A stretch of 64,000 nt of DNA from IMG/VR virus record IMGVR_UViG_3300043598_000012, positions 16,881 to 80,880 of that record. One strand, given 5' to 3'. Every line of letters starts with the position of its first letter. Position 1 is the first letter of the stretch. Below the pieces are notes generated by a model, which was given only the letters and a program-made list of their open reading frames with translations, ran no database searches and was not told where the DNA came from. The DNA comes from a virus. Positions 4,683 to 23,580 of the stretch are shown piece by piece. Position numbers and translations under genes: made by a program.

Positions 4683-5279
4683 ATGCGCATGAAGAAGGGG
4701 TCCCTCGTCGTTGTGGAGGGGCTCGACTCAACAGGAAAGACGACGCTCGTGGACGCTCTAGCAGAGCACGTCCACGGCATCACGGCGGTGCACTCGCCCA
4801 GCGGTGGCGGTGAATTGGGCCAGGAGATCTACGAGCTCACCGAGCGGCCCAGGCCAATGGAGGGGCTTACTCGTCAGTTCTTACATCTTGCGGCCCACGT
4901 TGAGATTTACCAGAACACAGTAATCCCTGCCCTCTCGCAGAGCGCGGTCGTGATGGACAGGAACTGGTGTTCTACTTACGCCTACGGGATCGCAGGAGGC
5001 GTGCTGAAGAGCACCCCCATCTTCTCAGCCGATTGGTATGACACCGTGCAGTACCCTGCTCAGGGACAGGTGCCAGATCTCGTCGTGCTCTGCTTGGAGC
5101 CTCATCGAGACGACCGCCACAACACGCCGGAGCTCGAAGCTGCGTACCTTGATCTCAAGCGGAGGCTCGACAAGGACCCCGCTCTCAAGCACGTCCGGAT
5201 CATGCCCAAGCTCAGCAAGCGGGCACAGCTCATCGCTTTGATGCAGATGTGCCAGGAAGCCAACCTCACAAGGAGCTAG
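4683..5279 (+). CDS. tmk: Thymidylate-kinase-family dNMP kinase (candidate 5hmdUMP kinase)
   Basis: VVEGLDSTGKTT P-loop, VVMDR motif, adjacent to the TS-family gene. Confidence 0.85.
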   Translation: MRMKKGSLVVVEGLDSTGKTTLVDALAEHVHGITAVHSPSGGGELGQEIYELTERPRPMEGLTRQFLHLAAHVEIYQNTVIPALSQSAVVMDRNWCSTYAYGIAGGVLKSTPIFSADWYDTVQYPAQGQVPDLVVLCLEPHRDDRHNTPELEAAYLDLKRRLDKDPALKHVRIMPKLSKRAQLIALMQMCQEANLTRS

Positions 5280-5281
5280 CG

Positions 5282-6388
5282 ATGCACGAGTTCGTAGGCG
5301 AGGTCAATGAGGTGTACCCCGCCATGCTGCAAGCGGTGTTCAAGTTCGGCGAGCGTGTGCCGTCGAGAGTCGCCCCCACCATCGAGCTGCACCCCCTCGT
5401 GGCCGAGTTCGAGAACCCTCGTCGGCGTCTCGTCACCTCGTACGGCAGGGCAGTCAACGTGCCGTTCATGCTGGCTGAGGTGGTGCACATCCTCAACGGG
5501 CGAGAAGACCTCGCCTTCCTCGACCAGTTCAACAGCCAGGTCAAGGAGTACAGCGACGACGGTGTGCGCTTCAATGCTGCCTACGGACACCGGCTCCGTC
5601 ACGCACACGGCTACGACCAGGTCAGGGATGTCATCAAGCTCCTCAAGCGGGACCGGGGTACCCGTCAGGCGACGCTCACGATCTGGCACCCAGACGACCG
5701 CCATCACGAGCTTGTGCACGTCGAGTCGCACAACGGCGGTGTCGGTGATGGATGGAGCAAGGAAGAACCTCGCCAGGTCAAGGACCGGGCCTGCAACCTG
5801 CTCGCCCACCTGATGATCCGGGATGGTGTGCTCAACTGGATGCAGGTCATGCGGAGCAATGACGCCATCTGGGGGCTCCCCTACAACCTCATGCAATGGA
5901 CCTACCTCATGGAGTACATCGCCAACGAGGTGGGCGTGGAGCTCGGCGTCTACCGGCATATCGCCGACAGTTTCCACATCTACGACTACCACGAGGACGA
6001 GGCAAGCAAGGTCGCGCCCTTCGACCTCTACGAGCATCAGGGCCTGCGCTCTCGTTCGCATGCTCCGATGATCGCTGACGAATCTGCGTTGGAAGCAGCG
6101 GTCGAGCTCGCCAACCATGGTTGGAGCAGCGTTCATCACCCCGGCAACGTTCCTCAGTGGGTGATCGACTTTGGCCAGATCTGGTCAAGCTGGCGCTCCT
6201 ATAAGGAGCTCGACGATGCCGGAGCCCAGCATCAACTGACACGCGCCAACGATCAGATCTTCGCAGCGGCGACTTATCGCTTCTACTGGTCCAACCGCTG
6301 GCACAAGCAGGACCCCGGTCATCCGCGCCCAGACACCGTCAGAGCCGCATGGGGTTCGACCATCGGTGACTGGATCATGGCGTCATGA
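5282..6388 (+). CDS. Thymidylate synthase superfamily enzyme, probably dUMP hydroxymethylase
   Basis: AYGHRL, catalytic KDRACN, RSNDAIWGLPYN (Asn implies uracil specificity), SFHIY; co-occurs with 5hmU-modifying enzymes. Confidence 0.8.
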   Translation: MHEFVGEVNEVYPAMLQAVFKFGERVPSRVAPTIELHPLVAEFENPRRRLVTSYGRAVNVPFMLAEVVHILNGREDLAFLDQFNSQVKEYSDDGVRFNAAYGHRLRHAHGYDQVRDVIKLLKRDRGTRQATLTIWHPDDRHHELVHVESHNGGVGDGWSKEEPRQVKDRACNLLAHLMIRDGVLNWMQVMRSNDAIWGLPYNLMQWTYLMEYIANEVGVELGVYRHIADSFHIYDYHEDEASKVAPFDLYEHQGLRSRSHAPMIADESALEAAVELANHGWSSVHHPGNVPQWVIDFGQIWSSWRSYKELDDAGAQHQLTRANDQIFAAATYRFYWSNRWHKQDPGHPRPDTVRAAWGSTIGDWIMAS

Positions 6389-6555
6389 CCACACTGCTTC
6401 AGATGCCTGTCGAGAAGTACATGGACGAGCGGGCGTTCGAGTTCGAGCAACTCGCCGCTCACGCCAAGACCAACCCGCTCGACCTACGGGTGGCGCTCTC
6501 CAACGTCTTCGTCTCTATGGCCCGCCAGGGTCACATGCGTACCCTCAAGAGGTGA
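6385..6555 (+). CDS. Small hypothetical protein (56 aa)
   Basis: ATGA overlap with the TS stop; typical codon usage. Confidence 0.55.
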   Translation: MTTLLQMPVEKYMDERAFEFEQLAAHAKTNPLDLRVALSNVFVSMARQGHMRTLKR

Positions 6556-6589
6556 CTCGCCTAGTACACTAGAGGCTACAATGGTCCGT

Positions 6590-7129
6590 ATGGACCACGT
6601 CTCGATCTACGCCCTTTGCGACCCTGGCGGAGAGATCCGTTATGTAGGAAAGACGATGCAGCCGGTGAGCAACCGACTATCCATGCACGTCGCTGAAGCC
6701 AAGAACCCTCGATACCAGTGTCACAGACTCAACTGGATTCGATCTCTGTTGGATCAGGGAGCTCGCCCGGAAGCTGTGCTGCTGATGAAGGTGCCTGTCG
6801 CAGAGTGGGAGCTCTGGGAGTGCACCTAGATTGCTGTGTTGCGGGAGGCAGGCTACCGCCTGGTTAACAACACAGACGGTGGGGACGGGCGTGTAGGCCC
6901 ATTGAGCGAAGAGACGCGCCGCAAGATCGGCGAGGCCCATCGGGGGAAGCCGGTCAACCAGCCTGGCGTACCTTTGAAGGTGACGCACCGAGCGGCCATC
7001 AGCCGGTCGCTGGCAGGGAACCAACGAGGCAAAGGGAACCGTGGCAAGAAGCTCAGTGAAGAGCACAAGCGGAAGATCGGCGAGGCGCGACGCCGAGCCT
7101 ACGAGCGCCAGAGGGCAGAAGCCAGGTGA
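6590..7129 (+). pseudogene. GIY-YIG/NUMOD3 homing endonuclease broken by an in-frame TAG at 6827-6829
   Basis: SIYAL...RYVGKT motif and NUMOD3 repeats (SEETRRKIGEAHRGK, SEEHKRKIGEA) in one frame, separated by a single TAG where W is expected. Confidence 0.8.
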
Positions 7130-10100
7130 TGCAGCGAAGGCGAAGGGCTCCAGGCTCGTTCACCTTCATTAGCTACGTGCACACCGATTATTCGTCACTA
7201 GACGGACTCGGTACCGTGCCTGAGTACGTCGAGAGGGCCAAGGCGGACGGCCAGGAGGCCCTGGCGATCACGGACCACGGCAACCTCTGTGGGCTCCCGG
7301 AGTTCTACAAGGAGTGCCGCAAGGCGGACATTGAACCAATCCTTGGTGAGGAGTTCTACTTCACCATCGACGCTGAACGCCACCGGCTAGAGACCAAGGG
7401 CAAGTCCACCAAGCACGAGGAAATGGCGGAGGCCGAGAGCGAGGGCCTGGGCCGCTACCACGTCGTGATCCTCGCCCGTGGGCAGCGAGGCTACGAGACG
7501 CTCTGCGAGCTCTCGACAGCCACGCACCACAACTTCTACGGCAAGCCGCTCCTCGACCGCAACATCGTCAACGAGCTCTCCGACAAGGACCGGGACAGCC
7601 TCGTGTGCCTCTCGGGCTGTGCGACCTCTGTGATCTCGAGAGCGGTGCTAGCAGGCGACATGCAAGGTGCTGCCCGACACCTCATCTGGTGGCGTGAGAT
7701 GTTCCCGCACTTCTACATCGAGCTTCAGCACCACGACACCGACTTCGATCGAGAGATCAACCGAGGGCTCTTGCGGCTCGCCAAGCGGTACGAGGTGCCC
7801 ATCGTCGTCACCAACGACCCGCACTACGCCGTGCCAGAGGACCATGAGCATCATGACGCGCTGCTTGCCATCCAGACGGCCAGCGACATCGACGACCCCG
7901 AACGTTTCGCCTTCTCCGGCTCCGGCTACCACCTCCGTACCGAGCGGGAGATGCGGGAGGCCTTCTCTCGCTATGGGTCTGAGGTCTGGAAGCCAGGCAT
8001 CCTCAACACGCAGGTGGTGGCTAAGCTTTGCCACACCAGGATCAAGGACTGGGAGAGCAAGACCTGGCACATCCCCAAGTTCCCTGACGTTGAAGACAGC
8101 CAAGCCTTCCTCCAGAAGTTGACCATCAAGGGGCTCAAGGAGCTGGGTCGGTTCAGCGACAGAGAGTACGTCAAGCGCGCCAAGTACGAGCTGGGCGTCT
8201 TCGAGGAGGTGGGCATAGCCGACTTCCTACTCATCACCTGGGACATCATCGAGGAGGCCAGGCGGCTTGGCATCGGTGTAGGTCCTGGGCGAGGCTCCGT
8301 GTGTGGAACCCTCGTTGGCCAGACCATCCGTCTCCACAAGATCGATCCGATCAAGTACGAGCTGCGGTTCGACCGCTTCTTGAACCCCGCTCGCCCAAAG
8401 ATGCCCGACATCGACACCGACTTCAGCCAGGAGCGGCGGGAGGAGCTCTTCCCCTACATCATCAGGAAGTACGGCGCCGAGAACGTGGTGACTGTCTGCG
8501 CCTACCAGACGCTGAGGCTCAAGAGCGCCTTCCAGTCCATGGCCCGAGCCTACGGCATCGAGTGGAACGAGCGGCAGAAGCTGACTAAGCTCCTCGCCAA
8601 CGACGACGAGAACAGCATCGACCTCCTGCCCGACGAGCTCCGTGAGGCACACCCCGAACTGGCTTCACGCATGCTTCGGCTCTCGGGCACCAAGAAGGGT
8701 GTCAGCCAGCACCCAGCCGGAGTGATCATTGCTGACCCCAAGGATCGTATTGCCAAGATGGTCCCAGAGATGTGGATCGCCTCCAGCAAGCGGATGGTTG
8801 GCCAGTACGATCTCTTGGCAGCAGAGGCAATGCACCTGCTCAAGCAGGACCTACTTGGGCTCCGCACGATCGACACCATCGAGCACAGCGTCGATCTCAT
8901 CGAGCAGAGCACAGGTGAGGTGCTAGATCCTGACTCGTGGGTGCCAGACGACGAGCCAGGTGACGACAAGGTCTGGGAGATGCTGGCGGAGGGTCGCACA
9001 GGTGGCGTGTTCCAGATGGAGGGACCGGCCAACCAGCAGGGTTGTCGAGAGGTGCAGCCCAATTGCTTTGAAGACGTGGTGAGCATCACCGCGCTCTACC
9101 GCACCGGCGCCATGTCGGCGGGCTTTCCCAAGGTGTTCAATGAGAACCGCCGTAAAGGCACCATCGACTTCATCCACCCTGACCTAGAGCCTATCCTGGG
9201 CCACACCTCTGGCGTGGTGCTCTACCAGGAGCAGGTCATGGACATGGGGGAGTTCCTCGCTGGGTTCGACATGGTACAGGTAGACGATATCAAGGACGCC
9301 ATCAAGAAGAAGGATCCCAAGGTCTTCGCCATCATCTCTCCCCTGTTCATCAGGGGTTGCATGGAGCACAGCGGGATGAGTGAGTCGGTAGCCAAGGAGA
9401 TCTGGCGTTACATCGAGGGCTATGCGGGGTATGGCTACAACCGGTCGCATGCCGTGGCCTACACCATGCTGACCTACCAGACAGCTCGACTCAAGGCTCT
9501 TTACCCCCTAGAGTTCCTCACAGCTCTGCTCCGCACGGTCAAGGGCTCCTCCAAGGAGGCCAAGGCCAAGCGAGAGGGCTACATGAGGGAGCTCATGGAG
9601 TACGGCTACACGATGCTGACTCCTTGCATCAACCGCTCTGACGAGCTCGCCACACCAGACGTCGAGCACGAGGGTGTCAGGTTTGGACTCTCAGACATCG
9701 CTGGCGTAGGTCACAAGGCCGCCAGCAAGATCGTTGATGGGCGCCCCGAGGGAGGCTACACGTCGGTCAAGACGCTGATGGCGGTGGCCAACAACACCGG
9801 CACCATGGACCACCTGCACGACGCCTGTGCCCTGGAGGTGCTCGGGGCTCCAGGAGACCTTAACGTAGCAGAAGAGAAGCTCAACTGGCAGTTCGTCGAC
9901 CGCATGGCAACTTACCGAGAGAAGTACGCGCTCAAGGTGCGGTTGCCCGTCGAGAACAAGAACGACAAGTGCCTGATCATCGGGGAGATCCGCAAGATCA
10001 CTCGGGGCACTACCAAGGGCAACAAGCCATACGTCACCTGGCACCTTCAGTGGGACATCACGCACACGTACGATATCCGTCTGTGGAGCGGGACCGACTC

Positions 10101-10215
10101 GCTCTGGAAGCTCAACGAGGGATCCGTGGTGGCTGTGCAGGGTGAGTGGGAACCGACATGGCATAACCTGAGCGTTGGTCGGTCCAAGCAGGTCAAGATC
10201 ATCAAGGCCATTTGA
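7126..10215 (+). CDS. dnaE: DNA polymerase III alpha subunit
   Basis: PHP motifs HTDYSSLDG and AITDHG, GPGRGS, MPDIDTDF catalytic motif, SQHPAG, LYQEQ, YNRSHAVAY. Confidence 0.97.
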   Translation: MMQRRRRAPGSFTFISYVHTDYSSLDGLGTVPEYVERAKADGQEALAITDHGNLCGLPEFYKECRKADIEPILGEEFYFTIDAERHRLETKGKSTKHEEMAEAESEGLGRYHVVILARGQRGYETLCELSTATHHNFYGKPLLDRNIVNELSDKDRDSLVCLSGCATSVISRAVLAGDMQGAARHLIWWREMFPHFYIELQHHDTDFDREINRGLLRLAKRYEVPIVVTNDPHYAVPEDHEHHDALLAIQTASDIDDPERFAFSGSGYHLRTEREMREAFSRYGSEVWKPGILNTQVVAKLCHTRIKDWESKTWHIPKFPDVEDSQAFLQKLTIKGLKELGRFSDREYVKRAKYELGVFEEVGIADFLLITWDIIEEARRLGIGVGPGRGSVCGTLVGQTIRLHKIDPIKYELRFDRFLNPARPKMPDIDTDFSQERREELFPYIIRKYGAENVVTVCAYQTLRLKSAFQSMARAYGIEWNERQKLTKLLANDDENSIDLLPDELREAHPELASRMLRLSGTKKGVSQHPAGVIIADPKDRIAKMVPEMWIASSKRMVGQYDLLAAEAMHLLKQDLLGLRTIDTIEHSVDLIEQSTGEVLDPDSWVPDDEPGDDKVWEMLAEGRTGGVFQMEGPANQQGCREVQPNCFEDVVSITALYRTGAMSAGFPKVFNENRRKGTIDFIHPDLEPILGHTSGVVLYQEQVMDMGEFLAGFDMVQVDDIKDAIKKKDPKVFAIISPLFIRGCMEHSGMSESVAKEIWRYIEGYAGYGYNRSHAVAYTMLTYQTARLKALYPLEFLTALLRTVKGSSKEAKAKREGYMRELMEYGYTMLTPCINRSDELATPDVEHEGVRFGLSDIAGVGHKAASKIVDGRPEGGYTSVKTLMAVANNTGTMDHLHDACALEVLGAPGDLNVAEEKLNWQFVDRMATYREKYALKVRLPVENKNDKCLIIGEIRKITRGTTKGNKPYVTWHLQWDITHTYDIRLWSGTDSLWKLNEGSVVAVQGEWEPTWHNLSVGRSKQVKIIKAI

Positions 10216-10583
10216 TGGCAAGGTGCCTTTACACTTACCCCTCTCAGGATCGATGCATGTTCACCGGCTGCGGGGAAGGTGAGGATTTCTGCCCTGCCCA
10301 CAGGATTATTATCAGAGAGCAGCGCAGCGAGCAGAAGCGGCTAGAGCGTAAGCGTCAGGAAACGGTTGAGAGGCGTCGCAACAAGAAGCCGGAGGTACCG
10401 ATGGCAGTCGAGCGGCGCCCACCTGTGATCGGTCCTCCTGGAGACCCCACTGCACCCTACTGCACCTGCAAGGGCAGAACAGCAGACCACGAGCCGTGCA
10501 CCAACTGCGGAAAGCCGCACTTCATGGACTGGCGAGAGAGCAAGCTCAAGAAGAAGGAGACCGCTAGTGGCAACCAAGGATAA
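10215..10583 (+). CDS. Hypothetical Cys-rich zinc-finger protein
   Basis: Several CxxC/CxC motifs; coupled to dnaE and recA. Confidence 0.55.
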   Translation: MARCLYTYPSQDRCMFTGCGEGEDFCPAHRIIIREQRSEQKRLERKRQETVERRRNKKPEVPMAVERRPPVIGPPGDPTAPYCTCKGRTADHEPCTNCGKPHFMDWRESKLKKKETASGNQG

Positions 10584-11601
10584 GGAAGTCACACTGCTGG
10601 AGCTGGAAGCGGCACTCCAGAAGAGGTTCGGCAGGGGTGTTATCCGTCGGGCTAGCGATCCATCTCTCGAGATCACGCGCATCCCTACGGGCGTCCTGAG
10701 CGTCGACTACCTGCTTGGTGGAGGCATCGCTCGCAACCGTCACACGGAGCTCTACGGGCAGTACAGCGTGGGCAAGAGCCTTCTGGCCCAGCGGACCATC
10801 GCTTCGGCTCAAGCGAACGGCCTGAGGTGCGCCTACGTAGACGTCGAGGGCTCCTTCGACCCTGTCTTCGCCGAGCACCTTGGGGTGGACCTCGAAGAGC
10901 TCTTCATCCCCGACGAGCTGGAGCATGGGAACGCCATCGTCGACTACATCGAGTTCCTCCTGCGCAGCGAGCTCTACGACACCATCACCATCGACTCCAT
11001 CGCTGCTCTCCTACCCAAGGAAGAGCGCGAGGCCAGCTCGGAGAAGAGTACCTACGGAGCGAGTCAGGCGAAGCTCATGAGCTCGGGGTTGCGCAAGCTG
11101 ACCACAGCCAACAAGAAGACGGCTCTGGTGTGGATCAACCAGATGCGGGACTCTATGAGCATGTTCGTCCCCAACACCACCTCCGGGGGTCGAGCGATGG
11201 GCTTCTACGCCGGTGCTCGCATCGAGATGAACCGTGTCGAGATCATCAAGCAGAGCCGCAAGCGTCGCAACGTCAAGACCGGCAAGGTGGACACGGTAGA
11301 TGTGCCGGTGGGGCATCGTGTGCTGCTCAAGGTTGATAAGGACAAGACCGGCGGGGCTCGGCAGTTCGCCCAGGGCACCTTCGTGTTCAACTACGAGGAC
11401 AGCTGCATCGACGAGATCGAGGAGCTCATCTACGTCGGCTCCGAGCTCGGCCTTGTGATGAACAAGGGCAACATGTACGCTGTCAAGAGGTTTGCTGACG
11501 AGCGTCAGAACGGTCGACCTCGTTTCAAGGCTTGGCTTCTCAAGCAGAAGGCTGTCCAGGAAGAGCTCCAGGAGCTGTGCGAGGAGCAGGTCTATGCGTA
11601 G
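10567..11601 (+). CDS. recA: RecA/UvsX-like recombinase
   Basis: IPTGVLSVDYLLGGG, GQYSVGKS P-loop, IDSIAAL, INQMR, TSGGRAMGFYA. Confidence 0.95.
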   Translation: MATKDKEVTLLELEAALQKRFGRGVIRRASDPSLEITRIPTGVLSVDYLLGGGIARNRHTELYGQYSVGKSLLAQRTIASAQANGLRCAYVDVEGSFDPVFAEHLGVDLEELFIPDELEHGNAIVDYIEFLLRSELYDTITIDSIAALLPKEEREASSEKSTYGASQAKLMSSGLRKLTTANKKTALVWINQMRDSMSMFVPNTTSGGRAMGFYAGARIEMNRVEIIKQSRKRRNVKTGKVDTVDVPVGHRVLLKVDKDKTGGARQFAQGTFVFNYEDSCIDEIEELIYVGSELGLVMNKGNMYAVKRFADERQNGRPRFKAWLLKQKAVQEELQELCEEQVYA

Positions 11602-12430: not shown

Positions 12431-13366
12431 ATGCCAAGATCAGCGGGTTGGTCACCTCACTCAGTGGATCCTGATAAGAAGCTCCTCTCCAAGCTCGTAA
12501 GGGCTATGAAGAACACGGAGCAGGATCCTCTGCGCCCGCTCATCGACGAGTACCTCGTGAAGCGGGAGCGGCGGGACCTACGCTCCAAGCGCCTGAAGGA
12601 GTACAGGGTTCCTCTTCTACCGGACGTGCGGCCAGGTGGGCGTCTCTCTCCCAGCGCCATCTGCGGCTGTAAGCGGCTCGCTGCGTTCAAGTACGCCGGT
12701 GTGCAGGGCGACGAGAGGATCGACCCTGACACTGAGTTGATCTTCGACGACGGCAACTGGCGGCACCACCGTTGGCAGGCTACCTTCCTCGACATGGAGG
12801 CCTTGCTCGGGCGAGAGCGGATCCGTGTGCTCGGGATCGAGGATCGTGTCGGCGACGAGCGGCTTCACATTGCAGGTTCACTAGACGTCTTGCTGGCTAT
12901 CAAGGTGCGACGAGGCAACGGGATGGTGTGGGAGAAGTACCTCATTGACATTAAGGGGATCAACACCTACGGGTTCAGCCGCATCACCATGGACAACGCG
13001 GCCAAGTCGGAGCACGTGCGGCAGGTCATCACTTACTGCAAACTGCGGCAGATTCGCAGAGGGTTGCTGCTCTACGAGAACAAGAACAGCAACGAGATCC
13101 GGGTCTTTCAGGTGCCGTTCAACCAGAAGCTCTGGCAGGAGGTCGAGGACTGGTCTTTGGAGGTGCTCGACGCCTTGGAGCACAAGCGGCTACCCCCGAT
13201 GCACCCCGAGTGCGAGGGAGGCACCTACCTGTGGGAGAAATGCCCTTACCGTCGGCTCTGCTACGGCATGGAGCCAGCTGAGGCGAGGCGTGAGACCTAC
13301 GTACACTTCAAGGGTGTCGACGAGGCTTGGGCGGCTGGCCACGAGGATTGGGAGGAGCGGGGTTGA
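12431..13366 (+). CDS. Cas4/RecB-like PD-(D/E)XK exonuclease
   Basis: LSPSAICGCKR, GSLD, IDIKG, QVITY, C-terminal C...CPYRRLC Fe-S ligands. Confidence 0.85.
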   Translation: MPRSAGWSPHSVDPDKKLLSKLVRAMKNTEQDPLRPLIDEYLVKRERRDLRSKRLKEYRVPLLPDVRPGGRLSPSAICGCKRLAAFKYAGVQGDERIDPDTELIFDDGNWRHHRWQATFLDMEALLGRERIRVLGIEDRVGDERLHIAGSLDVLLAIKVRRGNGMVWEKYLIDIKGINTYGFSRITMDNAAKSEHVRQVITYCKLRQIRRGLLLYENKNSNEIRVFQVPFNQKLWQEVEDWSLEVLDALEHKRLPPMHPECEGGTYLWEKCPYRRLCYGMEPAEARRETYVHFKGVDEAWAAGHEDWEERG

Positions 13367-13761
13367 GCAAGCGAGCGTTCTATGGGGAGATTGACGAAGA
13401 GCTGGGTTGGTATTGGCTTTCACCGTCACCTGTTCCTGGCAACCCTCCTTATGCCGAGCTGATGAAGCTTGGCGAGCTGCCTTCCATCGAAACGCAGATC
13501 TGTCGTTGGATGGAACACCTGGCAACTAAGGGCGCCGTTTTCACCGCCGAAGGCACTCTCAAGAAGATCGAGGAGGAGATCGGCGAGCTGAAGGATGCCC
13601 CCGACGATCCAGAAGAGGTGGCAGACATCATCATCGCAGCCATCGTCTTCTTCCATCAGAGTGGACATCGAAATCTTGGCGCTGAGCTGTGCAAGAAGAT
13701 GCGCAAGAACGAGGCTCGCACTTGGGCCATCCAACCAGATGGGAGTTTCCACCATGTCTGA
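13363..13761 (+). CDS. MazG-like all-alpha dNTP pyrophosphohydrolase
   Basis: KKIEEEIGEL...EEVADII...KMRKNEARTW. Confidence 0.7.
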   Translation: MSKRAFYGEIDEELGWYWLSPSPVPGNPPYAELMKLGELPSIETQICRWMEHLATKGAVFTAEGTLKKIEEEIGELKDAPDDPEEVADIIIAAIVFFHQSGHRNLGAELCKKMRKNEARTWAIQPDGSFHHV

Positions 13762-14281: not shown

Positions 14282-14660
14282 CCGTGGCACTCGATGACAT
14301 CCCTTCCGCCGCCACCGCTGATCCCCATTGTCCGGCATGCAGGCTCGGACGAGGTGACGAGATCGACTATGCACTCGGCGGGGAGACGATCTATCAGTGT
14401 GACACGTGTCAGCACCGTTGGGCCGAGCGAGATCGAGGTCACCAGAGCTCTGCGCACAGGCCAGGGAACTAGGGACGCCAGGGGCGCCGCCGACTCCTTC
14501 GCCCTGGCCCGCATGCTCGAACTGTTCGCCGCGGTCGATGATGTATGCTCTGAGGACGACGCATTCGCCCCCGACAAGTTGCGCATGGGCCTAGGGAGGA
14601 TTTACAGAGCATGGAAAATCTGTCGGGCGGAGTTGGATCCCAACTTCAATGCTGAACGTG

Positions 14661-15092
14661 ATGGACTGGCTAAGGCGGAAGGCGGAGCAGTCAGTCATGG
14701 AGCAGGAGGAACCGATGCTACCATGCACACTTCTCATGCACCTGTTCTACGGCCCCGATATCGACGGAAGGTCAGAGCCCGCCCGTGATCAACGAGAGCA
14801 ATTGGCCAAGGCCTTATGTGCCACATGCGAGCAGCGGGTTCCCTGCCTTAGACGAGCGGTGCGGAACAGGGAGAATCTAGGTGTACAGGGCGGCATGGGC
14901 GAAGGAGAGCGAAGAGCTTACCTTCAGCACCTCAAGGATGAAGGTTACGAGAACTGTCCAGAGGATGATGTCGAGTTGTACGCATCACTTAGAGAGTTTT
15001 ACCAGAAACACGAAGGCCGCTACATACATACGCTGGAGTTGGATGTGATGGCTGAGTGGGAAGCTTATCATTGGATGCTAGAGTCCGAATGA
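14661..15092 (+). CDS. whiB: WhiB-family Fe-S transcription factor
   Basis: C...LF...AKALCATCEQRVPCL...GVQGG...ERR; start could be 14661, 14697 or 14715. Confidence 0.85.
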   Translation: MDWLRRKAEQSVMEQEEPMLPCTLLMHLFYGPDIDGRSEPARDQREQLAKALCATCEQRVPCLRRAVRNRENLGVQGGMGEGERRAYLQHLKDEGYENCPEDDVELYASLREFYQKHEGRYIHTLELDVMAEWEAYHWMLESE

Positions 15093-15571: not shown

Positions 15572-15578
15572 TGGTGGG

Positions 15579-16124
15579 GTGCGGACGTGTCCCAAGTGTG
15601 GTCAGACCAAGCCTGAGTCGTGCTTCTACCAGAGTAAGAAGACCAACGGTTGTAGAGCGTGCGAGCGTTTGGCTGCTGGCAAGTACAAGAGGAAACTGAC
15701 GCCTGAGCGTAGGGCAGAGATCAACGCTAGAGCTCGTCAGCGACACCAAGAGCGCCGGAAGGATCCTGAGTACGTAGAGGCCAGGAACGCAAGAGCGAGG
15801 GCGCAGAGCCGAGCAGCACGAGAGGACCCTGTGCGTCGAGCTGCCATAGCGGCAGCCACTAGAAGTCGCAACCTGTTGAAGGCCCACGGCATGCAGGAGG
15901 AGGACTTCGACGAGCTCTGCGAACTGCAAGGTGGCGTCTGTGCCTTGTGCGACGGGATCCCGAGTGGCCGCGGCCCGAACAAGTTCTTGCACGTAGACCA
16001 CGATCACACTTCTGGTGTGCTGAGGATGCTCCTGTGTAGCAACTGCAACACGGCTCTCGGGCTCATGAAAGACAACCCTGATCTGCTTCGAAAGGCAGCC
16101 GAGTACTTGGAGATCTTCGCATGA
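15579..16124 (+). CDS. Endonuclease VII-type HNH homing endonuclease (leaderless)
   Basis: QGGVCALC...LHVDHDH...LLCSNCN; TATAGT-6 bp-GTG. Confidence 0.88.
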   Translation: MRTCPKCGQTKPESCFYQSKKTNGCRACERLAAGKYKRKLTPERRAEINARARQRHQERRKDPEYVEARNARARAQSRAAREDPVRRAAIAAATRSRNLLKAHGMQEEDFDELCELQGGVCALCDGIPSGRGPNKFLHVDHDHTSGVLRMLLCSNCNTALGLMKDNPDLLRKAAEYLEIFA

Positions 16125-16927
16125 TCCATGTGGCCCGTTGGGGCAAGCACCACGAGCACGAGCTCGACGTAGGATAGGTGCTGTGAAGTCCCCCAGCCAC
16201 TTCCGATGCTTCCCCTGTCGAGCGCTCACCGAGATCGATCGGTCGCTGGAGCTCATGACGTGCGCCAACTGCGGAACGCACGAGGGAGACCTGGTCAACA
16301 TAGTGGCTTGCCCACGGCCAGAGACCTACACGCTTCCCGGCGAGAGCTGGCGGTGCAGCCTTCCCTTCCACGACTACCAGCGGGACGCCCACGTGGTCCC
16401 TTGGGAGCAGCGTGAGATGCTGCTGACGGACTGATGGCTACTGCAACCAAGACCCTCAACTTCAAGATCAACCTGGCCCCACTCCGCTGGGCGCTGCGCC
16501 AGATCGACCACACGCTCACGACTTGGTTCAACAAGCCATGGAACGTTGAGAACAAGTACGACCGACAGCGGCTGCGCGAGCTCGCCCAGAACGCAGTCGT
16601 GCTCGATGCTCTCGCTGATGACGATGCCTGAGCCCACCAAGCGGGAGATCAACCGGGGCATCGCCAGGGGGGCTCGTTGCCCCAACTGTCGAGCCTTCTG
16701 GTCTTGGTGTGTCTGCTCTGCTGTGGAGCGAGCATCTGCCATGCGAGCCCTGCTGGAGGAGCAGGTGCTGCTCTTCCGAGAGGTGGCTCACTGTGCCTGG
16801 CACCTCCTCGACGATGGTGGTGAAGTCGAGGGCGATGATGAGATGTGGCAAGGATCCAAGCGGGATGCCGACAGACTCTCGGATGCGCTCAACGACCTAG
16901 AGGCGAGTGGCTGGGACGCACACCCTG

Positions 16928-17884
16928 ATGCCTGACTTCCTGCCTGATGGTGAAGAGCGCTTCGAGGAGCTCGTGGAGTTCATGCTCCACATGCACAGCA
17001 GCCGGGACCTCGATCCGCTGTACCCAGTGCTGCGCAAGCTCCAGAACAACTTCAACCGAGAGCAGGGGCTCTGGTTCAGCTTCCTCTACGTGGCGTGGTA
17101 CAACCTGCCTTCGGCTTGGGCAGCGTTCAACATGTCTACCTACCCGACCGAGCTGCTACCTCTGTGGCTGGACCCCAAGTGGCCGACCGGCACAGAGCGT
17201 CGAGCCAACCGTGGTGGCAAGGTGGCCGAACACATCCAGGACTACATGCTCAAGATCGCGGGGAGCCGTAGTCAGTACCGCTGGTACACCAAGGACTTGG
17301 TGCTGGATGATCTTGATCAAGCAACCAAGGAGATCAACTGGTACACGCTCAACGAGCGCATCCAGTCACTCTTCATGAACGGTCGTTGGGCGGGATACAA
17401 GCACTGCGAGGTGCTGGCCAAGGTCAACGGCATCCCAGTGCTAGCTCCCCACATGGGTCACGCCAACAGTAGCGGACCTCGCCAAGGTCTTGCTATGATC
17501 TACGATTGCAGCGAGCTGACTGGCAACGACCCAGGCACCATCGCTGTGCTCGATGAGATGAGCGCGGACCTGACCTTCCAACTCGACCAAGCTCTCCCCG
17601 GCTTGAACCTGGAGATAGAGGACGTGGAGACGATCCTCTGCAACTGGAAGTCGCTGATGAAGGGCAAGTACTACGTCGGTCACGACATCGACGAGCTGCA
17701 AGAGCAGATCCTCCGAGCAGAGGAGCGTGGCATCCTTTCGAAGGAGTCCTCGCGCTACCTGTGGCGGGCTCGCAAGGCCGTCTTGCCGCACGAGTACCTC
17801 GGTGAACTGGGAGGATGGGAGGGCGTAGACCGACGGCGCATGGCTGCGTACAAAGACACTGGAAGGATTGAGGTGCGATCGTGA
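16928..17884 (+). CDS. aGPT-Pplase2 amino acid:DNA transferase (thymidine hypermodification)
   Basis: DLDPLY, PTGTERR, GRWAGYK, SGPRQGL, ETILC, YYVGHDIDE, LPHEYLGE motifs. Confidence 0.85.
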   Translation: MPDFLPDGEERFEELVEFMLHMHSSRDLDPLYPVLRKLQNNFNREQGLWFSFLYVAWYNLPSAWAAFNMSTYPTELLPLWLDPKWPTGTERRANRGGKVAEHIQDYMLKIAGSRSQYRWYTKDLVLDDLDQATKEINWYTLNERIQSLFMNGRWAGYKHCEVLAKVNGIPVLAPHMGHANSSGPRQGLAMIYDCSELTGNDPGTIAVLDEMSADLTFQLDQALPGLNLEIEDVETILCNWKSLMKGKYYVGHDIDELQEQILRAEERGILSKESSRYLWRARKAVLPHEYLGELGGWEGVDRRRMAAYKDTGRIEVRS

Positions 17885-18562: not shown

Positions 18563-18949
18563 ATGAGCGCTGTTCGAGAGCGTCCGCCGGTCATGCGCCA
18601 TGGCCAGACCACCTCGTTTCACGTGGGCGAGGCCAAGGGCTACATGACCGTCAACCTGTCGGAGGATGGCAGGCCCATCGAGATCTTTCTGAAGCTCGCC
18701 AAGCAGGGTTCCACCCTCTCCGGCATCTTCGACTCGCTCGCCATCCTCATCAGCCACTCGCTACAGCGGGGCGTTGGCGTCGAAGAGATCTGCGACTCGC
18801 TCATCGGGCTCCGCTTCGAGCCTTGGGGGCAGACCAACGACCCTGACATCCCTGAGGCACGTTCGATCAGCGACTACATCGGTCGTCGGCTCGCGCTCGA
18901 CTACGTGGACTGGGAGGTCGCTTCCGAGCTCCTCCAGAAGCACCAGTGA
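18563..18949 (+). CDS. Stand-alone TSCPD domain (class II ribonucleotide reductase C-terminal part)
   Basis: GYMTV...DGRPIEIF...KQGSTL...LQRGV...RFEPWG...SISDYI. Confidence 0.85.
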   Translation: MSAVRERPPVMRHGQTTSFHVGEAKGYMTVNLSEDGRPIEIFLKLAKQGSTLSGIFDSLAILISHSLQRGVGVEEICDSLIGLRFEPWGQTNDPDIPEARSISDYIGRRLALDYVDWEVASELLQKHQ

Positions 18950-19506
18950 CCTGCATCGCAGCCGTCGCTGGTGAAGACGGCACCGTGTACATGGGCGGGG
19001 ACTCCGCAGGGATCGACTCGCGTCTCGACCTTGGCATCCACGCTGAGACCAAGGTGTGGCGCTCAGGTCCGGCGCTCTTCGGGGCGTGTGGCTCCTTCCG
19101 AGTCGCCCAGCTCATCCGCAACAAGATGCACGTGCCGACCTACGAGCCGGGTGACGATGTCTGGCCCTACCTGGTCGGCCCGTTCATCGACGCCATGCGT
19201 GAGTCGCTGGCCATGGGCGGAGCCCTGGCGCAGTGGCTGGAAGATGCTAACGAGTCGATGTTCGGCAGCTTCGTGGTGGCCGTCGGCGGCAGGGTCTTTG
19301 AGATGTACGAGGACTTCGGCGTCGGAGAGCTTGTGCACGGCTACGCCGCAGTGGGTTGCGGAGCTCCGATGGCTGTCGGTTCCTTGGCGACCACCGAGCA
19401 CCTTCGAGTAGGCCCCAAGCGTCGAGTCGAACTTGCTCTAGAGGCAGCGGAGCGACACAGCGGAGGGGTGCGAGGCCCCATGCATATTGAGAAGCTCCCT
19501 GCATGA
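18946..19506 (+). CDS. HslV/proteasome-like Ntn hydrolase
   Basis: N-terminal MTCIAA (Thr nucleophile), GGDS, AVGCG. Confidence 0.75.
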   Translation: MTCIAAVAGEDGTVYMGGDSAGIDSRLDLGIHAETKVWRSGPALFGACGSFRVAQLIRNKMHVPTYEPGDDVWPYLVGPFIDAMRESLAMGGALAQWLEDANESMFGSFVVAVGGRVFEMYEDFGVGELVHGYAAVGCGAPMAVGSLATTEHLRVGPKRRVELALEAAERHSGGVRGPMHIEKLPA

Positions 19507-20084
19507 CTCTTCCTGACCACGAGATCGAAGCGGCGGTGCGCAGCCACAACCTGGGCATCGAGCCATTCAACGAGGAACAGCTCCAGCCTGCGAGCTACGA
19601 CTTGCGGTTGGATCGCTACTTCCGCCGAGTGCGTGGTGCAGCTTCTGAGGCGCGGCTCGTGGACCCCGCTAAGGACCAGGACTGGACTGTCGAGGCGCAC
19701 CCTGTGCACCGTGGCGGCAGGCCTATGATCGGCTTGGAACCTAACAAGATGCTGCTGGCGAGCACTGTGGAGCGGATCCGGATGCCCGCCCACCTCGTCG
19801 CCCGTGTTGAGGGCAAGAGCTCGCTGGCTCGGCTAGGCCTGTTCGTGCACGTCACGGCAGGCTTCATCGACCCAGGCTTCGAAGGTCACATCACGCTGGA
19901 GCTCTACTGCGGCAACGGGCGGGGCATCATCCTCTACCCCGGCATGCCCATTGCTCAGATCGCTTTCGACCGGATGGACTCGCCACCCCGCCAGGTGTAC
20001 GCCGGGAAGTACCAGGGCTCCAACGAGCCTGGGCCAGTGCCTTCTAGGTACCACCAGAACTTCCCACTCAAGGAGATGACATGA
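19503..20084 (+). CDS. dcd: dCTP deaminase (possibly dUMP-forming)
   Basis: QPASYDLRL, EGKSSLARLGL, TAGFIDPGFEGHITLE. Confidence 0.93.
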   Translation: MTLPDHEIEAAVRSHNLGIEPFNEEQLQPASYDLRLDRYFRRVRGAASEARLVDPAKDQDWTVEAHPVHRGGRPMIGLEPNKMLLASTVERIRMPAHLVARVEGKSSLARLGLFVHVTAGFIDPGFEGHITLELYCGNGRGIILYPGMPIAQIAFDRMDSPPRQVYAGKYQGSNEPGPVPSRYHQNFPLKEMT

Positions 20085-20326
20085 ATAACGGCGACAAGGT
20101 CAAGGACAAGATCACGGGCTTTGAGGGCACCGTGACCGGGCGGGTCGAGTACATCACCGGCTGCAACCAGCTGTTGGTGCAGCCATCTTCCAAGGACGGC
20201 ACTGAGATGCCCAAGTCGTCTTGGATCGACGAGGACCGTTGCGAGCTCGTCGTGGCCATGTTCGTCGACCCCAACACGCTCCAGAAGCGCAACCCTGGCT
20301 TCGGCGAGCCTGCTCCGATCCGATGA
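20081..20326 (+). CDS. Small SH3-like phage protein
   Basis: GDKVKDKITGFEGTVTGRVEYITGC; AAGGAG RBS. Confidence 0.6.
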   Translation: MNNGDKVKDKITGFEGTVTGRVEYITGCNQLLVQPSSKDGTEMPKSSWIDEDRCELVVAMFVDPNTLQKRNPGFGEPAPIR

Positions 20327-20707
20327 AGTACTTCATGAGCGATGCCGAGATCGCCAACCGCAAGAAGGCTCGTTGCGACATCCTCGATGCCGTCAACAAG
20401 GGCCGGGACAAGCCTCTTCGCATGCGCCACATCCAGCGAGCAGCGCACGTCGCCCGCCATCAGAAGCTCGTCAAGAAGAACGTGCTGGTGGCAGTGGGGT
20501 TCAACCCAACCAGCCGGTGAGGGCGGAGCCAGGGGATCGAGTTCTGTTGCGAGGAGATCACCCCTACTGCGGGCATACAGGTTCCGTAACAGAACCTTTG
20601 CACTCTACGGCAGCAGGTCAGGCCATCAAAGTGCGTGTTGATGGTGGACCTGAGGTCTACGCCTTCGGCGATCAATGGACGGGCACACCCAAGGGAAGAA
20701 GTGTTCA

Positions 20708-21634
20708 GTGAGAGTTCACCTGGAAGGGTTCGGGCTTATGGGCAGCCTGCTGGCCCCTCACCTAGAGGACGTTGGTATCGAATTCACTTTCCACGACATC
20801 GGTGAAGAGCGAGTGCAGAGCTGGCGGGCAAGCACCGGCGCCATCATGCCTTTTGGGGACGAAGACTCCATGCAAGGGTTGGAGGACTGGCGGCAGATGG
20901 TTCGCTGCAAGGGTACGTTCCGGGAGCTCTACCTACCACACATCCAGCGAGCTCGGTTCTGCTATTACAGCCAGAACCCTCCGCACGGTGGGGCCAAGTT
21001 TGGTGTGGAGGAGATCGCCAAGGTTGGCGGTGTGCGCATCAGCAACAAGCACAGCTTCCACATTGACGCTCAGCAGGTGGTAGAAATTGCCCGCAGCCAC
21101 TACCGAAAGCAGCGTCTCGCCCATCGCCCATCCAAGAAGGCTGACGATGATCTGCTCATCGTGACGCATGGATGGCGTCCGAACACCATCGGCGCCTACT
21201 CGTGGGGTTGGAGTGCCATTGTTACTGCCAGGATGAGTGATGAATTGCAGATCGCCTTAGGCTTTGGGGAGGGTTGCTTCTACCTGCGCAACGGATATCA
21301 GGTTTGTTACCTTTACCCTGTGGGGCGGACGGGCGCCTTTTACGCAGGAACCACACTTGTGACTCAGAAGAACGGCCCCAAGGACCTCGACCCTGAGCCG
21401 CACTACAGGCGATGGGCAAACCAGCTAGAGAACTTCTCTGGAGGCCACCTCGCTGTCCGAGAACTGCTTCCGAACACTCTGCGGCAAGCCTGGCGCCCTA
21501 AGCCTCGCGACGACCAGAGCGAGCTTGTATGGAGGCGAGGCAGCACGGTCTACTTCCGGCCTGCGGCAGGTAACGGGATCAGGCTTTTCCCGCTCTACCT
21601 CGACGCCCTGTTGGCCGAGCTCGGGGTACGATAG
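20708..21634 (+). CDS. FAD-dependent oxidoreductase (DAO-like; candidate base-modification lyase)
   Basis: N-terminal GFGLMG Rossmann motif, WRP, GNG; sits among the hypermodification genes. Confidence 0.7.
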   Translation: MRVHLEGFGLMGSLLAPHLEDVGIEFTFHDIGEERVQSWRASTGAIMPFGDEDSMQGLEDWRQMVRCKGTFRELYLPHIQRARFCYYSQNPPHGGAKFGVEEIAKVGGVRISNKHSFHIDAQQVVEIARSHYRKQRLAHRPSKKADDDLLIVTHGWRPNTIGAYSWGWSAIVTARMSDELQIALGFGEGCFYLRNGYQVCYLYPVGRTGAFYAGTTLVTQKNGPKDLDPEPHYRRWANQLENFSGGHLAVRELLPNTLRQAWRPKPRDDQSELVWRRGSTVYFRPAAGNGIRLFPLYLDALLAELGVR

Positions 21635-21894
21635 TACAGAGCCGACTTAACCGGGAGTGCAAATGCCGAACGAAGAGAACTACGTGGACCGCACCTACAA
21701 GGTTAGGGAGAAGATCGCTCCTGGCCTGCATGAGGGCGTCACCTTCACGGTGCTACATCAAGACGACGCCGGATTGATCGTAGGGGTGCCCGAGGAGCGC
21801 CCAGTGGTGAAGGCTGAGGGGATCTCCAAGGAGGAGATGGACACCAACCACCGCATCCCCGTCTCCGCTCTCGGGAAGTGCGATGGGGTCACTG

Positions 21895-22413
21895 ATGGCG
21901 AGTGACATCCAGCCCATCAGTGGCGAGGAGTTTCGGCAGCTCGGCTACCTCCAGGAAGTCAACCGTCAGGTGCTGCATCCGCTCGGGCTCGCGCTCTACA
22001 ACGACCAGGGTTGGAGCAGGGAGCGAGTCGAGAAGCTGCTCCAGGAGCAAGGTGTCCAGTTCGGCGAGGACGCCATCGACAACATCATGACCTTCCTGGC
22101 TCGTGCTGGCCTCATGGAGGAGCACATCGCCGGAGCTCTCGACGATCGGAGCGACCCCGAGGGTTGGCAGTTCGCTGTGCGAGCCGACCACCTCGAAGAG
22201 GACATGGCGGAGTTCACCCGCAAGCGGATCAACATCGAGGGTGAGTGGACCAGCCGGTCGCTCACTCGCATCGCCAACCTTGGCTACATCGTTCAGGAGG
22301 ACATCCACGTCCCTGGCATGCAGCCGCTAGCCTTCGGCGAGGATGATGAGCCAGTTGACGATGAACCAGAAGTTGGTTCTGTCGATTCTGCCTCGCTTCC
22401 GGAGGGATCGTGA
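21895..22413 (+). CDS. Hypothetical phage protein
   Basis: Long ORF with typical codon usage (GYLQEVNRQVLHPLGLAL). Confidence 0.6.
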   Translation: MASDIQPISGEEFRQLGYLQEVNRQVLHPLGLALYNDQGWSRERVEKLLQEQGVQFGEDAIDNIMTFLARAGLMEEHIAGALDDRSDPEGWQFAVRADHLEEDMAEFTRKRINIEGEWTSRSLTRIANLGYIVQEDIHVPGMQPLAFGEDDEPVDDEPEVGSVDSASLPEGS

Positions 22414-23013
22414 GCGAGCCCACCTACTCTAGAGAGGTGCTCGTCGACCTGTGCGAGCGGGCAGCTGTCCCTGTAGACCACTGGCACGACCGCGACTCAG
22501 CGGGGGCTCAGAAGCAGGTGGGCGAGGCCTTGATGCTCCTCAAGGCTGGGTGCGATTTCTCTATGAGCGAGGATCCCGTCACGGACGAGAAGACCGTCTG
22601 GATCAGGGTTGTCTACCCAGGGTTCAACGCCTTCGAGTGTGGTCGGGATCGTGCCGACGGATACTGGGATGATGACACCTTCTACATCCCCACCAACGTG
22701 CGGCTCGCTCGCTCAGAAGGCAAGGACTGGTACTGATGGGTCTCGTTGGCGCCATGGCCTACCCGCACGCGCTACGAGCAGGGCAGAAGGTGATCTGGGA
22801 TCAGCGTGATGGTGTGGCGACCGTCCTCGTGGTAAAGGACGTGAAGCGCATCACCGTCGAGCACGCTCGTCCGTTCTATGAGGGTAGGCACGGAGTCCGA
22901 GATGCCGACTTCACACATGTTGTGGTGAACTTCAAGGGGCTGCCATGGCCGGTGATCTTCGGGCACATGCAATCGGTGTCCGTGTTCGAACAGCAGTTCC
23001 GAGGAGATGACTG

Positions 23014-23580
23014 ATGAAGCGTTACATGTGTTACATCGTGGGAGAACCTGGCAGCGGCAAGACAACGCTGTGCCGAGAGTTCACATCTGACCTTCGCAAG
23101 AAGGTCAAGACTGTCCCCTACGTGAGCTATACTCACTTCGGCAAGGAGACCATGGAGCTCGGCCACGATCGGGAGACATTCGGGGGTACTGATGCTCTCG
23201 GGATGGCTGCCCAGAACCATGTGCTGGAGTTCCTGCGTAACGGACCTGGCGCCGAGTACCGCTACATCCTGGCGGAGGGGGACCGGCTTGCCAACGCCAA
23301 GTTCTTCGAGGCGGTGCGGGGCATGGGCATCGACCTGAACGTCTACGCCTTGCTACCTCCGGCCAAGGTCATCGAGCGTCGTCGAGCTGCCCGCAACGCA
23401 TCCATTGGCAAGGAGCAGAACGAGCGGTGGCTGAAGACGAGGGCCACCAAGGTTGCCAACATTGTCCACGATTGGGTTCCACCAGAGCATCGGCTGACCC
23501 AAAGACCAGAAGAGGTCCTTCGGATCATACTGGCAGACGATCCGGTGGCGAAGCAGTTGGCTCGGATGCGCGACTCCTAG
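23014..23580 (+). CDS. P-loop 5-hydroxymethyluracil DNA kinase (5-HMUDK)
   Basis: GEPGSGKTT, FGGTDALGM, AEGDRL motifs typical of the kinases that accompany aGPT-Pplases. Confidence 0.8.
   Translation: MKRYMCYIVGEPGSGKTTLCREFTSDLRKKVKTVPYVSYTHFGKETMELGHDRETFGGTDALGMAAQNHVLEFLRNGPGAEYRYILAEGDRLANAKFFEAVRGMGIDLNVYALLPPAKVIERRRAARNASIGKEQNERWLKTRATKVANIVHDWVPPEHRLTQRPEEVLRIILADDPVAKQLARMRDS

Follow-up and report, generated by a model that had tools for sequence, protein, structure and literature searches.

A predicted two-stage thymidine hypermodification pathway with a distinct flavoenzyme family in a putative soil actinophage

Genes for nucleotide metabolism and for putative DNA-modifying enzymes are dispersed through the replication module of the virus contig IMGVR_UViG_3300043598_000012, raising the question of which base this phage carries in its DNA in place of thymine and which enzyme would perform the last step of its synthesis. 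The source record is an 80,880-bp contig with direct terminal repeats and an estimated completeness of 100%, and a search of sequencing runs returned one soil metagenome as the sole public source of the stretch studied here. This stretch (the window) comprises 64,000 nucleotides, bases 16,881 to 80,880 of the contig, the remaining 16.9 kb lying outside it; coordinates below refer to the window. The explanation we favor, which we regard as somewhat better than an even bet, is that a complete, lytic-type actinophage genome encodes a two-stage route: 5-hydroxymethyl-2'-deoxyuridine (5hmdU) would be supplied before replication, and a DNA kinase, an amino acid:DNA transferase (AADT) and a flavoenzyme would then convert it into 5-aminomethyl-2'-deoxyuridine (5-NmdU). 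Judging from the gene content, it is highly probable that virion DNA carries a modification derived from 5-hydroxymethyluracil (5hmU), and 5-NmdU stands at about an even chance of being the final base. The basis of this explanation is family and fold membership, catalytic residues, gene linkage and gene fusions, and the absence of alternatives; since the genome is complete, gene absences weigh more than they would in a fragment.

A sequence-only reading of the window had assigned seven open reading frames (ORFs) to such a pathway, and all of them were recovered on the + strand, with starts at 4683, 5282, 13363, 16928, 19503, 20708 and 23014. Pfam families above their curated cut-offs confirmed the deoxynucleoside monophosphate (dNMP) kinase (4683), the MazG-like enzyme (13363), the transferase of the aGPT-Pplase2 type (16928), the dCTP deaminase Dcd (19503) and the P-loop kinase (23014). 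The pathway genes do extend over about 19 kb (4683-6388, 13327-14281, 16907-17884, 19503-21634 and 23014-23580), in company with a DnaE polymerase gene at 7126-10215. In the proposed scheme, the phage dCTP deaminase would convert dCTP into dUTP and so enlarge the deoxyuridine (dU) nucleotide pool, and host Dut, the MazG-like enzyme or a deaminase of bifunctional type would turn dUTP into dUMP. The single thymidylate synthase (TS)-family enzyme would hydroxymethylate dUMP, instead of methylating it, to 5hmdUMP, from which the dNMP kinase and a host nucleoside diphosphate kinase would produce 5hmdUTP, and the phage DnaE would incorporate 5hmdU in place of T. On the finished DNA, the P-loop kinase (Ploopntkinase3) would phosphorylate the 5-hydroxymethyl group to give 5-phosphomethyl-dU, the transferase would put an amino acid, most likely N-linked glycine, in place of the phosphate, and the flavoenzyme would oxidize the N-C-alpha bond, hydrolysis then releasing a keto acid and leaving 5-NmdU. 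The chemistry of each step, the choice of amino acid and the share of T that is modified are predictions. In phage PaMx11, the pathway to 5-acetylaminomethyl-dU (5-AcNmdU) comprises the dUMP hydroxymethylase gp51, the 5-hmdU DNA kinase gp49, the glycine:DNA transferase gp46, the flavin-dependent lyase gp47 (NGTO) and the acetyltransferase gp48 (PMC8989533, PMC11472151).

The predicted dUMP 5-hydroxymethyltransferase is a TS-superfamily enzyme encoded at 5282-6388 (+; alternative GTG start at 5249), and its assignment combines a Pfam match, motifs and a tree. The Thymidylat_synt family matched it at 1.5e-21 (77 bits), covering only profile positions 3-219 of 266, and both the uracil-type Asn noticed in the sequence-only reading and the catalytic Cys are present. 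Its best phage match was the SPO1-type gp29 'deoxyuridylate hydroxymethyltransferase' (35%, E 3e-36), further best matches being the SP10 dUMP hydroxymethylase and the M6/PaMx11-like and ViI-like enzymes; identity with PaMx11 gp51 was 31%. In the PDB the top match was the CMP hydroxymethylase MilA (5e-20), and the best TS followed at 2.6e-9. All eight NCBIfam TS equivalogs remained far below cut-off (the best, TIGR03283, with 70.5 bits vs 174.55). Alignment with 12 reference proteins revealed xxSDDG in place of the TS motif IWDEW and KDRxCN in place of the TS motif PPCH, together with RSNDxxWG, a C-terminus extended by about 110 residues and the loss of the C-terminal TS motif HPxIKAxV. This motif set and the extension are common to the SPO1-like, SP10, PaMx11 and ViI-like enzymes. 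The catalytic Cys lies in KDRACN, aligned to TS Cys146, and the uracil-type Asn lies in RSNDAIWGLPYN (GLPYN), aligned to TS Asn177, a position held by Asp in T4 gp42 and MilA, which are cytosine-specific enzymes. A maximum-likelihood tree placed the protein with the hydroxymethylases (support 85/94) and the canonical TS separately (96/96), with poor resolution inside the hydroxymethylase clade and with the annotated TS GodonK on the same side. The genome contains exactly one TS-family gene, and neither a second one nor a ThyX was found in it.

By every available test, the TS homolog is predicted to be a hydroxymethylase rather than a methylase. Because the genome holds no second TS, no ThyX and no TET/JBP dioxygenase, it is also the only possible source of 5hmU for the kinase and the transferase. 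The proposal that this phage replaces T with 5hmU and hypermodifies part of it is thus supported, at the level of sequence, by a coherent gene set, by the hydroxymethylase signatures and by the lack of TET/JBP. A similar protein was noticed in a cultured actinophage: gp41 of Brevibacterium phage LuckyBarnes (NC_047851; 517 aa), annotated as 'thymidylate synthase', carries KFSDDG, KDIPCN and RSND and groups with the hydroxymethylases, and this phage may contain 5hmU. The records with a transferase match do not include LuckyBarnes.

The transferase gene lies at 16907-17884 (+; the sequence-only reading had taken the ATG at 16928 as its start). Its product matched the Pfam family ADDT (PF18724) at 3.2e-23, with 83.1 bits vs a cut-off of 26.2, over profile positions 3-230 of 232, and in the PDB it matched the PaMx11 glycinyltransferase gp46 (8z2m) at 1.6e-9. 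The active site of gp46 is formed by D24, Y47, Y51, E92, W146, K150, E243, T244, C247, K261, D262 and E265 (PMC11472151). Eleven of these 12 residues are kept in the phage protein, including the Asp, Trp and Lys that hold glycine, the Glu-Thr metal ligands and the Cys of the base clamp, and the amino acid joined would most likely be glycine, N-linked. The kinase of the 5-hmdU DNA kinase type (23014-23580, +) matched Ploopntkinase3 (PF18751) at 1.2e-23, with 84 bits vs a cut-off of 27. Its Walker A motif is intact (GEPGSGKT, residues 10-17), and the GTD and EGDRL motifs read earlier from the letters are present as GGTDALG and AEGDRLAN. It is 36-39% identical to the kinases adjoining the AADT in Gordonia phage CaiB, Mycobacterium phage Phelemich and Rhodococcus phage Tonitrus, and its similarity to PaMx11 gp49 is weak (30% identity over 141 aa, pairwise E 2e-4). 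Membership in the aGPT-Pplase2 and 5-HMUDK families had been assumed for the two proteins; for the transferase the ADDT profile bore this out above cut-off, and the kinase exceeded the cut-off of Ploopntkinase3 and gave no match to the HMUDK_HMUD1 profile (PF18748) at E<=0.01.

The enzyme on which the identity of the final base depends is the flavoenzyme encoded at 20708-21634 (+; alternative ATG at 20675), assigned through a structure model to the fold of D-amino-acid oxidase (DAAO), glycine oxidase and MnmC. No Pfam model exists for its family, and searches against Pfam, PHROG and NCBIfam returned no match. Its N-terminus has the Rossmann start GxGxxG...D, and the family shows no variation in the GxGxxG or in the acidic residue at the end of strand 2. 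The AlphaFold (AF2) model, computed from an alignment of 14 homologs, reached a predicted local distance difference test (pLDDT) of 90.2 and a predicted template modeling score (pTM) of 0.88. With this model, Foldseek retrieved D-amino-acid oxidases at E 4e-13, and VIA-align gave Z scores of 22.2 for DAAO, 22.1 for CmiS2, about 21 (20.8-21) for ThiO and 19.6-20.3 for the oxidase domain of MnmC, the alignments covering 280-291 of the 308 residues, essentially the whole chain. Both structure comparisons listed the best 50 matches, places that were filled by DAAO-type chains, and gp47 of PaMx11 (8Z2O) did not appear in these lists. A phmmer search of the flavoenzyme against PDB sequences yielded nothing meaningful. 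The earlier description as an FAD enzyme therefore holds for the modeled DAAO/MnmC fold and the Rossmann start, and finds no counterpart in sequence-profile matches.

Since its profile comparison with gp47 aligns the Rossmann start alone, the flavoenzyme is, on sequence grounds, a separate family and not a gp47 ortholog. In a profile search of 1.84 billion representatives, 214 clusters were recovered at E<=1e-3, 207 of them below 1e-10, and the family so delimited is compact and sharply bounded. A locus search with the oxidase alignment returned nothing in viral contigs or metagenome contigs; an oxidase 70% identical to the flavoenzyme is encoded on a 68-kb metagenomic relative. In eight cultured phages, seven Gordonia phages of the CaiB type and Rhodococcus phage Tonitrus, a homolog adjoins the transferase and the kinase, being the gene directly after the two. 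The announcement of Tonitrus lists a 'hypothetical protein' as the last (fifth) member of a proposed hypermodification gene set (PMC11955845), and this protein is most likely the flavoenzyme homolog.

Two fused proteins extend this linkage. One (P0161, 1060 aa, on a 5.7-kb Logan contig) joins AADT, oxidase and P-loop kinase in a single chain, in which the AADT domain matches Pfam at 3.6e-15, the oxidase domain matches the flavoenzyme family in hhalign with a probability of 100 (5.7e-49) and the kinase domain is weakly similar to the 5-hmdU DNA kinase model. The other (P0033, 456 aa, on a 114-kb NCBI contig) consists of an oxidase of the flavoenzyme family followed by a GNAT domain 31% identical to PaMx11 gp48 (5-NmdU acetyltransferase; PMC8989533), which acts after gp47 by acetylating the amine that gp47 exposes. 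This arrangement would make sense if the oxidase exposed a primary amine as gp47 does, and by this analogy it is the best indication that the flavoenzyme family exposes a primary amine. The enzyme gp47 belongs to the same, MnmC-like fold class, and both gp47 and MnmC cleave the N-C-alpha bond (PMC8989533, PMC11472151); in tRNA, MnmC strips the glycine-derived carboxymethyl group from 5-carboxymethylaminomethyluridine (cmnm5U), leaving 5-aminomethyl-uridine (nm5U) (PMC8989533). The proposed reaction would have its RNA counterpart here, and oxidative trimming of the appended amino acid is the function predicted from the model. The likeness to MnmC, ThiO and DAAO is a whole-chain structural match; on the other hand, sequence identity is 9-15% with no profile match, the presumed substrate is double-stranded DNA, and a methyltransferase domain is missing.

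Comparison with known systems places the soil phage between two groups. It resembles PaMx11 in the predicted pre-replicative supply of 5hmdU through a TS-family hydroxymethylase, in the P-loop kinase and the AADT, in a flavoenzyme of the GR2/DAAO/MnmC fold class, and in having a cytosine-nucleotide deaminase and a nucleotide pyrophosphohydrolase elsewhere in the genome. It differs from PaMx11 in lacking an acetyltransferase, in drawing its flavoenzyme from another sequence family, in the 19-kb spread of genes that in PaMx11 are contiguous (gp46-gp51), in encoding a dCTP deaminase instead of a dCMP deaminase, in its DnaE, to which PaMx11 opposes gp55, only a 'putative DNA polymerase' and much shorter, and in its predicted actinobacterial host. 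With SPO1 and SP10 it shares the best phage match of its TS homolog (the gp29 dUMP hydroxymethylase), the motifs and a length of about 380 aa; SPO1 stops at 5hmU, and SP10 proceeds to a different hypermodified thymidine (PMC8989533).

The second group is formed by actinophages whose cassettes start with TET/JBP, namely the Gordonia phages of the CaiB type (Sourvirus), Rhodococcus phage Tonitrus, Mycobacterium phages Phelemich and Reprobate, and Microbacterium phage Kozie (PMC11955845, PMC13229309). These Gordonia, Mycobacterium, Rhodococcus and Microbacterium phages provide the closest transferase homologs (33-38% identity) and, except in Kozie, the closest kinase homologs (35-39%); the closest flavoenzyme homologs (29-31%) come from the CaiB type and Tonitrus, and acetyltransferases are missing from these phages as well. 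In contrast to the soil phage, they have one tight cassette beside the terminase and no TS-family gene, and a TET/JBP dioxygenase, mostly with ParB, lies directly upstream of the transferase. Because TET/JBP takes the place of the TS-family gene, 5hmU would be made on finished DNA in these cultured phages, a post-replicative route that has been studied (PMC13229309). Kozie and Phelemich differ further in their flavoenzyme, a Pfam-DAO-type enzyme like gp47, and since this enzyme occupies the same cassette slot, the two flavoenzyme types look interchangeable. As to gene order and annotation, the flavoenzyme follows the kinase in CaiB and Tonitrus and precedes it in Phelemich and Kozie; upstream of the transferase stands a gene that the records of CaiB, Phelemich and Kozie call 'oxidoreductase' or 'hypothetical' and that of Tonitrus calls 'Tet-like J-binding protein', and its match to Tet_JBP is under the Pfam cut-off in all four (E 8e-10 to 6e-6).

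Judging from these sequences, the soil phage joins late enzymes of the actinophage type with the nucleotide-pool route of SPO1, M6, PaMx11 and ViI. The pathway itself is known: its logic, its enzyme classes and their combinations in viromes, including flavin oxidoreductases and TET/JBP variants, have been published (PMC8989533, PMC11472151). The sequence-only reading overrated how unusual the scheme is, given that transferase, kinase and DAO-type flavoenzyme without acetyltransferase are standard in cultured actinophages and that the general scheme is in print (PMC8989533). What sets the present version apart is the combination of the non-orthologous flavoenzyme, the lack of an acetyltransferase, the pre-replicative feed in an actinophage and the dispersed layout. 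A literature search, with most subscription journals outside its scope, found no paper naming or characterizing the flavoenzyme family or giving the chemistry of the actinophage cassettes, and no report of 5-NmdU as a terminal natural base or of modified bases in Gordonia DJ, Acadianvirus and related actinophages.

The nature of the final base also depends on which enzymes are missing. Profile searches in six frames, run over all 80,880 bp of the genome, detected no GNAT (PF00583, PF13508), no radical S-adenosylmethionine (radical-SAM) enzyme, no pyridoxal phosphate (PLP)-dependent decarboxylase or aminotransferase and no TET/JBP thymine dioxygenase; in 14 reference genomes that served as positive controls, the searches found their targets in all or most cases, with the exception of TET/JBP, a rarity in that set. 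The lack of GNAT, PLP decarboxylase and radical-SAM genes reported before for the window thus extends to the rest of the genome, where no GNAT turned up either. In tblastn searches of the genome, PaMx11 gp48 gave zero matches, and gp45, gp50, gp52 and gp53 likewise had no counterparts. One match of the P0033 GNAT domain, at 26837-26929 (E 0.066), was dismissed as chance, comprising 31 residues inside an 83-aa ORF and no acetyl-CoA motif. GNAT is also absent from the four cultured cassette actinophages CaiB, Phelemich, Tonitrus and Kozie, which makes the lack of an acetyltransferase a rule in this host group rather than a peculiarity of this genome. Because no acetyltransferase is encoded, the final base is most likely the free amine; of the two end products considered in the sequence-only reading, free 5-aminomethyluracil or a new base, we infer that the former is the likely one.

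Regarding the nucleotide supply, the dNMP kinase of thymidylate type (4683-5279, +) matched Thymidylate_kin at 2.4e-13 (50.6 bits vs a cut-off of 27). It appears divergent, since its TIGR00041 score of 60.9 is under the cut-off of 83; only the N-terminal P-loop half aligns. The stop codon of the kinase gene is followed, at a distance of 3 nt, by the hydroxymethylase ATG, an arrangement that suggests coupled expression, and the substrate of the kinase would be 5hmdUMP. The dCTP deaminase (19503-20084, +; DCD 6.6e-47; TIGR02274 167.9 bits vs a cut-off of 92.8) would supply dUTP and dUMP. The C-family DNA polymerase of DnaE type (7126-10215, +; Pfam PHP, DNA_pol3_alpha, finger and HHH_6) is only 30-34% identical to its nearest phage homologs, and, with 5hmdU supplied before replication, it would have to incorporate 5hmdUTP. 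The MazG-like all-alpha NTP pyrophosphohydrolase (13327-13761, +; true start possibly 13363) matched dATP-dGTP_PPHyd at 1e-6 and may have a role in dUTP/dTTP handling. Its nearest characterized relative, MazZ (PDB 7ody, 4.3e-6), acts on purine dNTPs, which makes it weak evidence for thymine exclusion; the possibility that it is the counterpart of PaMx11 gp62 was rejected, as the two show no similarity. The adjacent gene (13754-14281, +) encodes a HAD-family phosphatase (HAD_PNKP 7.7e-8) with the DxDG motif FDIDGV, speculatively a candidate dNMP phosphatase, and it is a matter of speculation that the two proteins together clear dTTP or dTMP.

Several of these observations weigh against the explanation favored here. 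Pfam DAO (PF01266) missed the flavoenzyme in a six-frame search at E<=10, a model that recognizes PaMx11 gp47 at 2.6e-15 and Kozie gp3 at 5e-20. The hhalign comparison of the family with gp47, taken by itself or in an alignment that included Kozie gp3 and Phelemich gp4, aligned 33-34 N-terminal columns only, with probabilities of 10-45%, and both the predicted substrate of the flavoenzyme and the bond it would attack derive from fold and context only. In the transferase, His259 replaces K261 of gp46, and the amino acid used is not readable from the sequence. No dedicated dTTP-exclusion enzyme was securely identified in the genome. About half of the ORFs are without a family match; several of these are small and lie between the transferase and kinase genes, and an unrecognized tailoring enzyme may hide in this set. 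The amine could also be modified further by an enzyme of the host.

Such points lend some weight to the possibility that the pathway runs and ends in a base other than 5-NmdU, which we consider unlikely, though a real contender. The transferase might attach another amino acid, for instance O-linked serine as in ViI, whose alpha-amine the oxidase would remove to leave a keto-acid adduct; the oxidase might attack the C5-methylene-N bond instead and give 5-formyl-dU; or an unrecognized phage ORF or a host enzyme might decorate the amine. The sequence distance between the flavoenzyme family and gp47 speaks for it, as do the many amines oxidized by DAAO-fold enzymes, the unassigned ORFs at 21657-23014 between oxidase and kinase and the many enzyme combinations in published metagenomic clusters (PMC8989533). 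The transferase, however, conserves the glycine-binding residues of gp46, a member of the oxidase family is fused to a gp48-like acetyltransferase, and the neighboring family-less ORFs are absent from the cultured phages with the same three enzymes. A different account would keep canonical thymine and ordinary nucleotide metabolism, with the TS homolog making dTMP and the transferase and kinase being relics or serving another role. Phage databases do annotate such proteins as 'thymidylate synthase', and support for the hydroxymethylase side of the tree is only moderate (85/94), with the annotated TS GodonK on that side. We nevertheless regard this account as improbable: the NCBIfam TS equivalogs are far under their cut-offs, motifs of proven hydroxymethylases stand where TS has IWDEW, PCH and its C-terminal motif, the catalytic residues of the transferase are kept and all ORFs are intact, and, TET/JBP being absent, three conserved genes would have no substrate without 5hmU. 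Least probable of all appears a DAAO-fold protein unrelated to DNA modification, acting for example in amino-acid or cofactor metabolism, with an adduct such as N-alpha-glycinyl-thymidine as the base. Such a reading would fit the position of the flavoenzyme gene, which is separated from the transferase gene by 2.8 kb and from the kinase gene by 1.4 kb and stands outside one tight operon, and its lack of a profile match; it would leave aside the homologs adjoining transferase and kinase in eight cultured phages, the single AADT-oxidase-kinase chain, the fusion to a gp48-like GNAT and the NGTO-type DAO enzymes in the same cassette slot of Kozie and Phelemich.

As for the carrier, an actinobacterial host is suggested by a WhiB gene at 14649-15092 (2.9e-11) and by the origin of the best relatives of three pathway genes, which are Gordonia, Mycobacterium, Rhodococcus and Microbacterium phages; the G+C content of the window is about 60%. 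No close cultured phage is apparent in sequence records, since the 19-kb region had no megablast match among phage records and DnaE is at most 34% identical to that of any phage record. A tRNA search found no tRNA genes. Pfam scans covered about 70 of some 120 ORFs, including almost all those of at least 100 residues, and outside the pathway the scanned ORFs matched replication, recombination, regulatory and structural functions only. An extensive replication and recombination module of the phage's own is encoded in the window, with a DnaG-type primase (450-1460), a sigma-70 region 2 protein (2305-2760), HU (4321-4605), RecA (10567-11601), a Cas4/RecB-like exonuclease (12431-13366, +; phrog_1706, 3.9e-27) and an SNF2 helicase (24073-25869). 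Two + strand genes with Endonuclease VII domains lie at 15579-16124 (3.7e-20) and at 23600-24076 (4.6e-22), the latter immediately following the DNA kinase gene. Between the hydroxymethylase and DnaE genes, a short + strand ORF with a GIY-YIG catalytic motif (6581-6829, 3e-4) adjoins another with NUMOD3 DNA-binding repeats (6836-7129, +; 1.9e-10), and the two look like a homing endonuclease split over two reading frames. At 18563-18949 (+) a stand-alone TSCPD domain protein matches positions 741-861 of a class II (B12-dependent) ribonucleotide reductase (NF005122, 4.7e-39), and no catalytic gene for this reductase was seen among the scanned ORFs. It is followed at 18946-19506 (+) by an HslV-like Ntn-hydrolase (phrog_1040, 1.7e-14) that begins MTCIAAV, whose stop overlaps the dCTP deaminase start and which is absent from the cultured cassette phages. 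Finally, a block of lower G+C content (0.54-0.57 vs about 0.60) at 50534-54919 (+), just upstream of the terminase/portal region, holds four large ORFs of 490, 241, 253 and 502 aa with no Pfam match.

Taken to its furthest reach, the analysis leads us to propose tentatively, at somewhat short of an even chance, that 5-NmdU is a natural terminal DNA base, that an unrecognized flavoenzyme family of about 214 clusters replaces the gp47-type oxidase in making it, also in the CaiB-type Gordonia phages and Tonitrus, and that this is the first actinophage with pre-replicative 5hmdUTP used through a DnaE-type polymerase. So far, 5-NmdU is known only as an intermediate in PaMx11. The present data give a fold and a proposed function to an unnamed family that includes the Tonitrus 'hypothetical protein', and they depict the pathway as modular, with one set of post-replicative enzymes that can draw 5hmU from TET/JBP oxidation of thymine or from the nucleotide-pool route. 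If the proposal is true, a whole group of actinophages, of which culture collections hold several, would carry a positively charged aminomethyl-uracil in their DNA, which would bear on restriction resistance, on sequencing and cloning behavior and on the enzyme toolbox for site-specific DNA functionalization.

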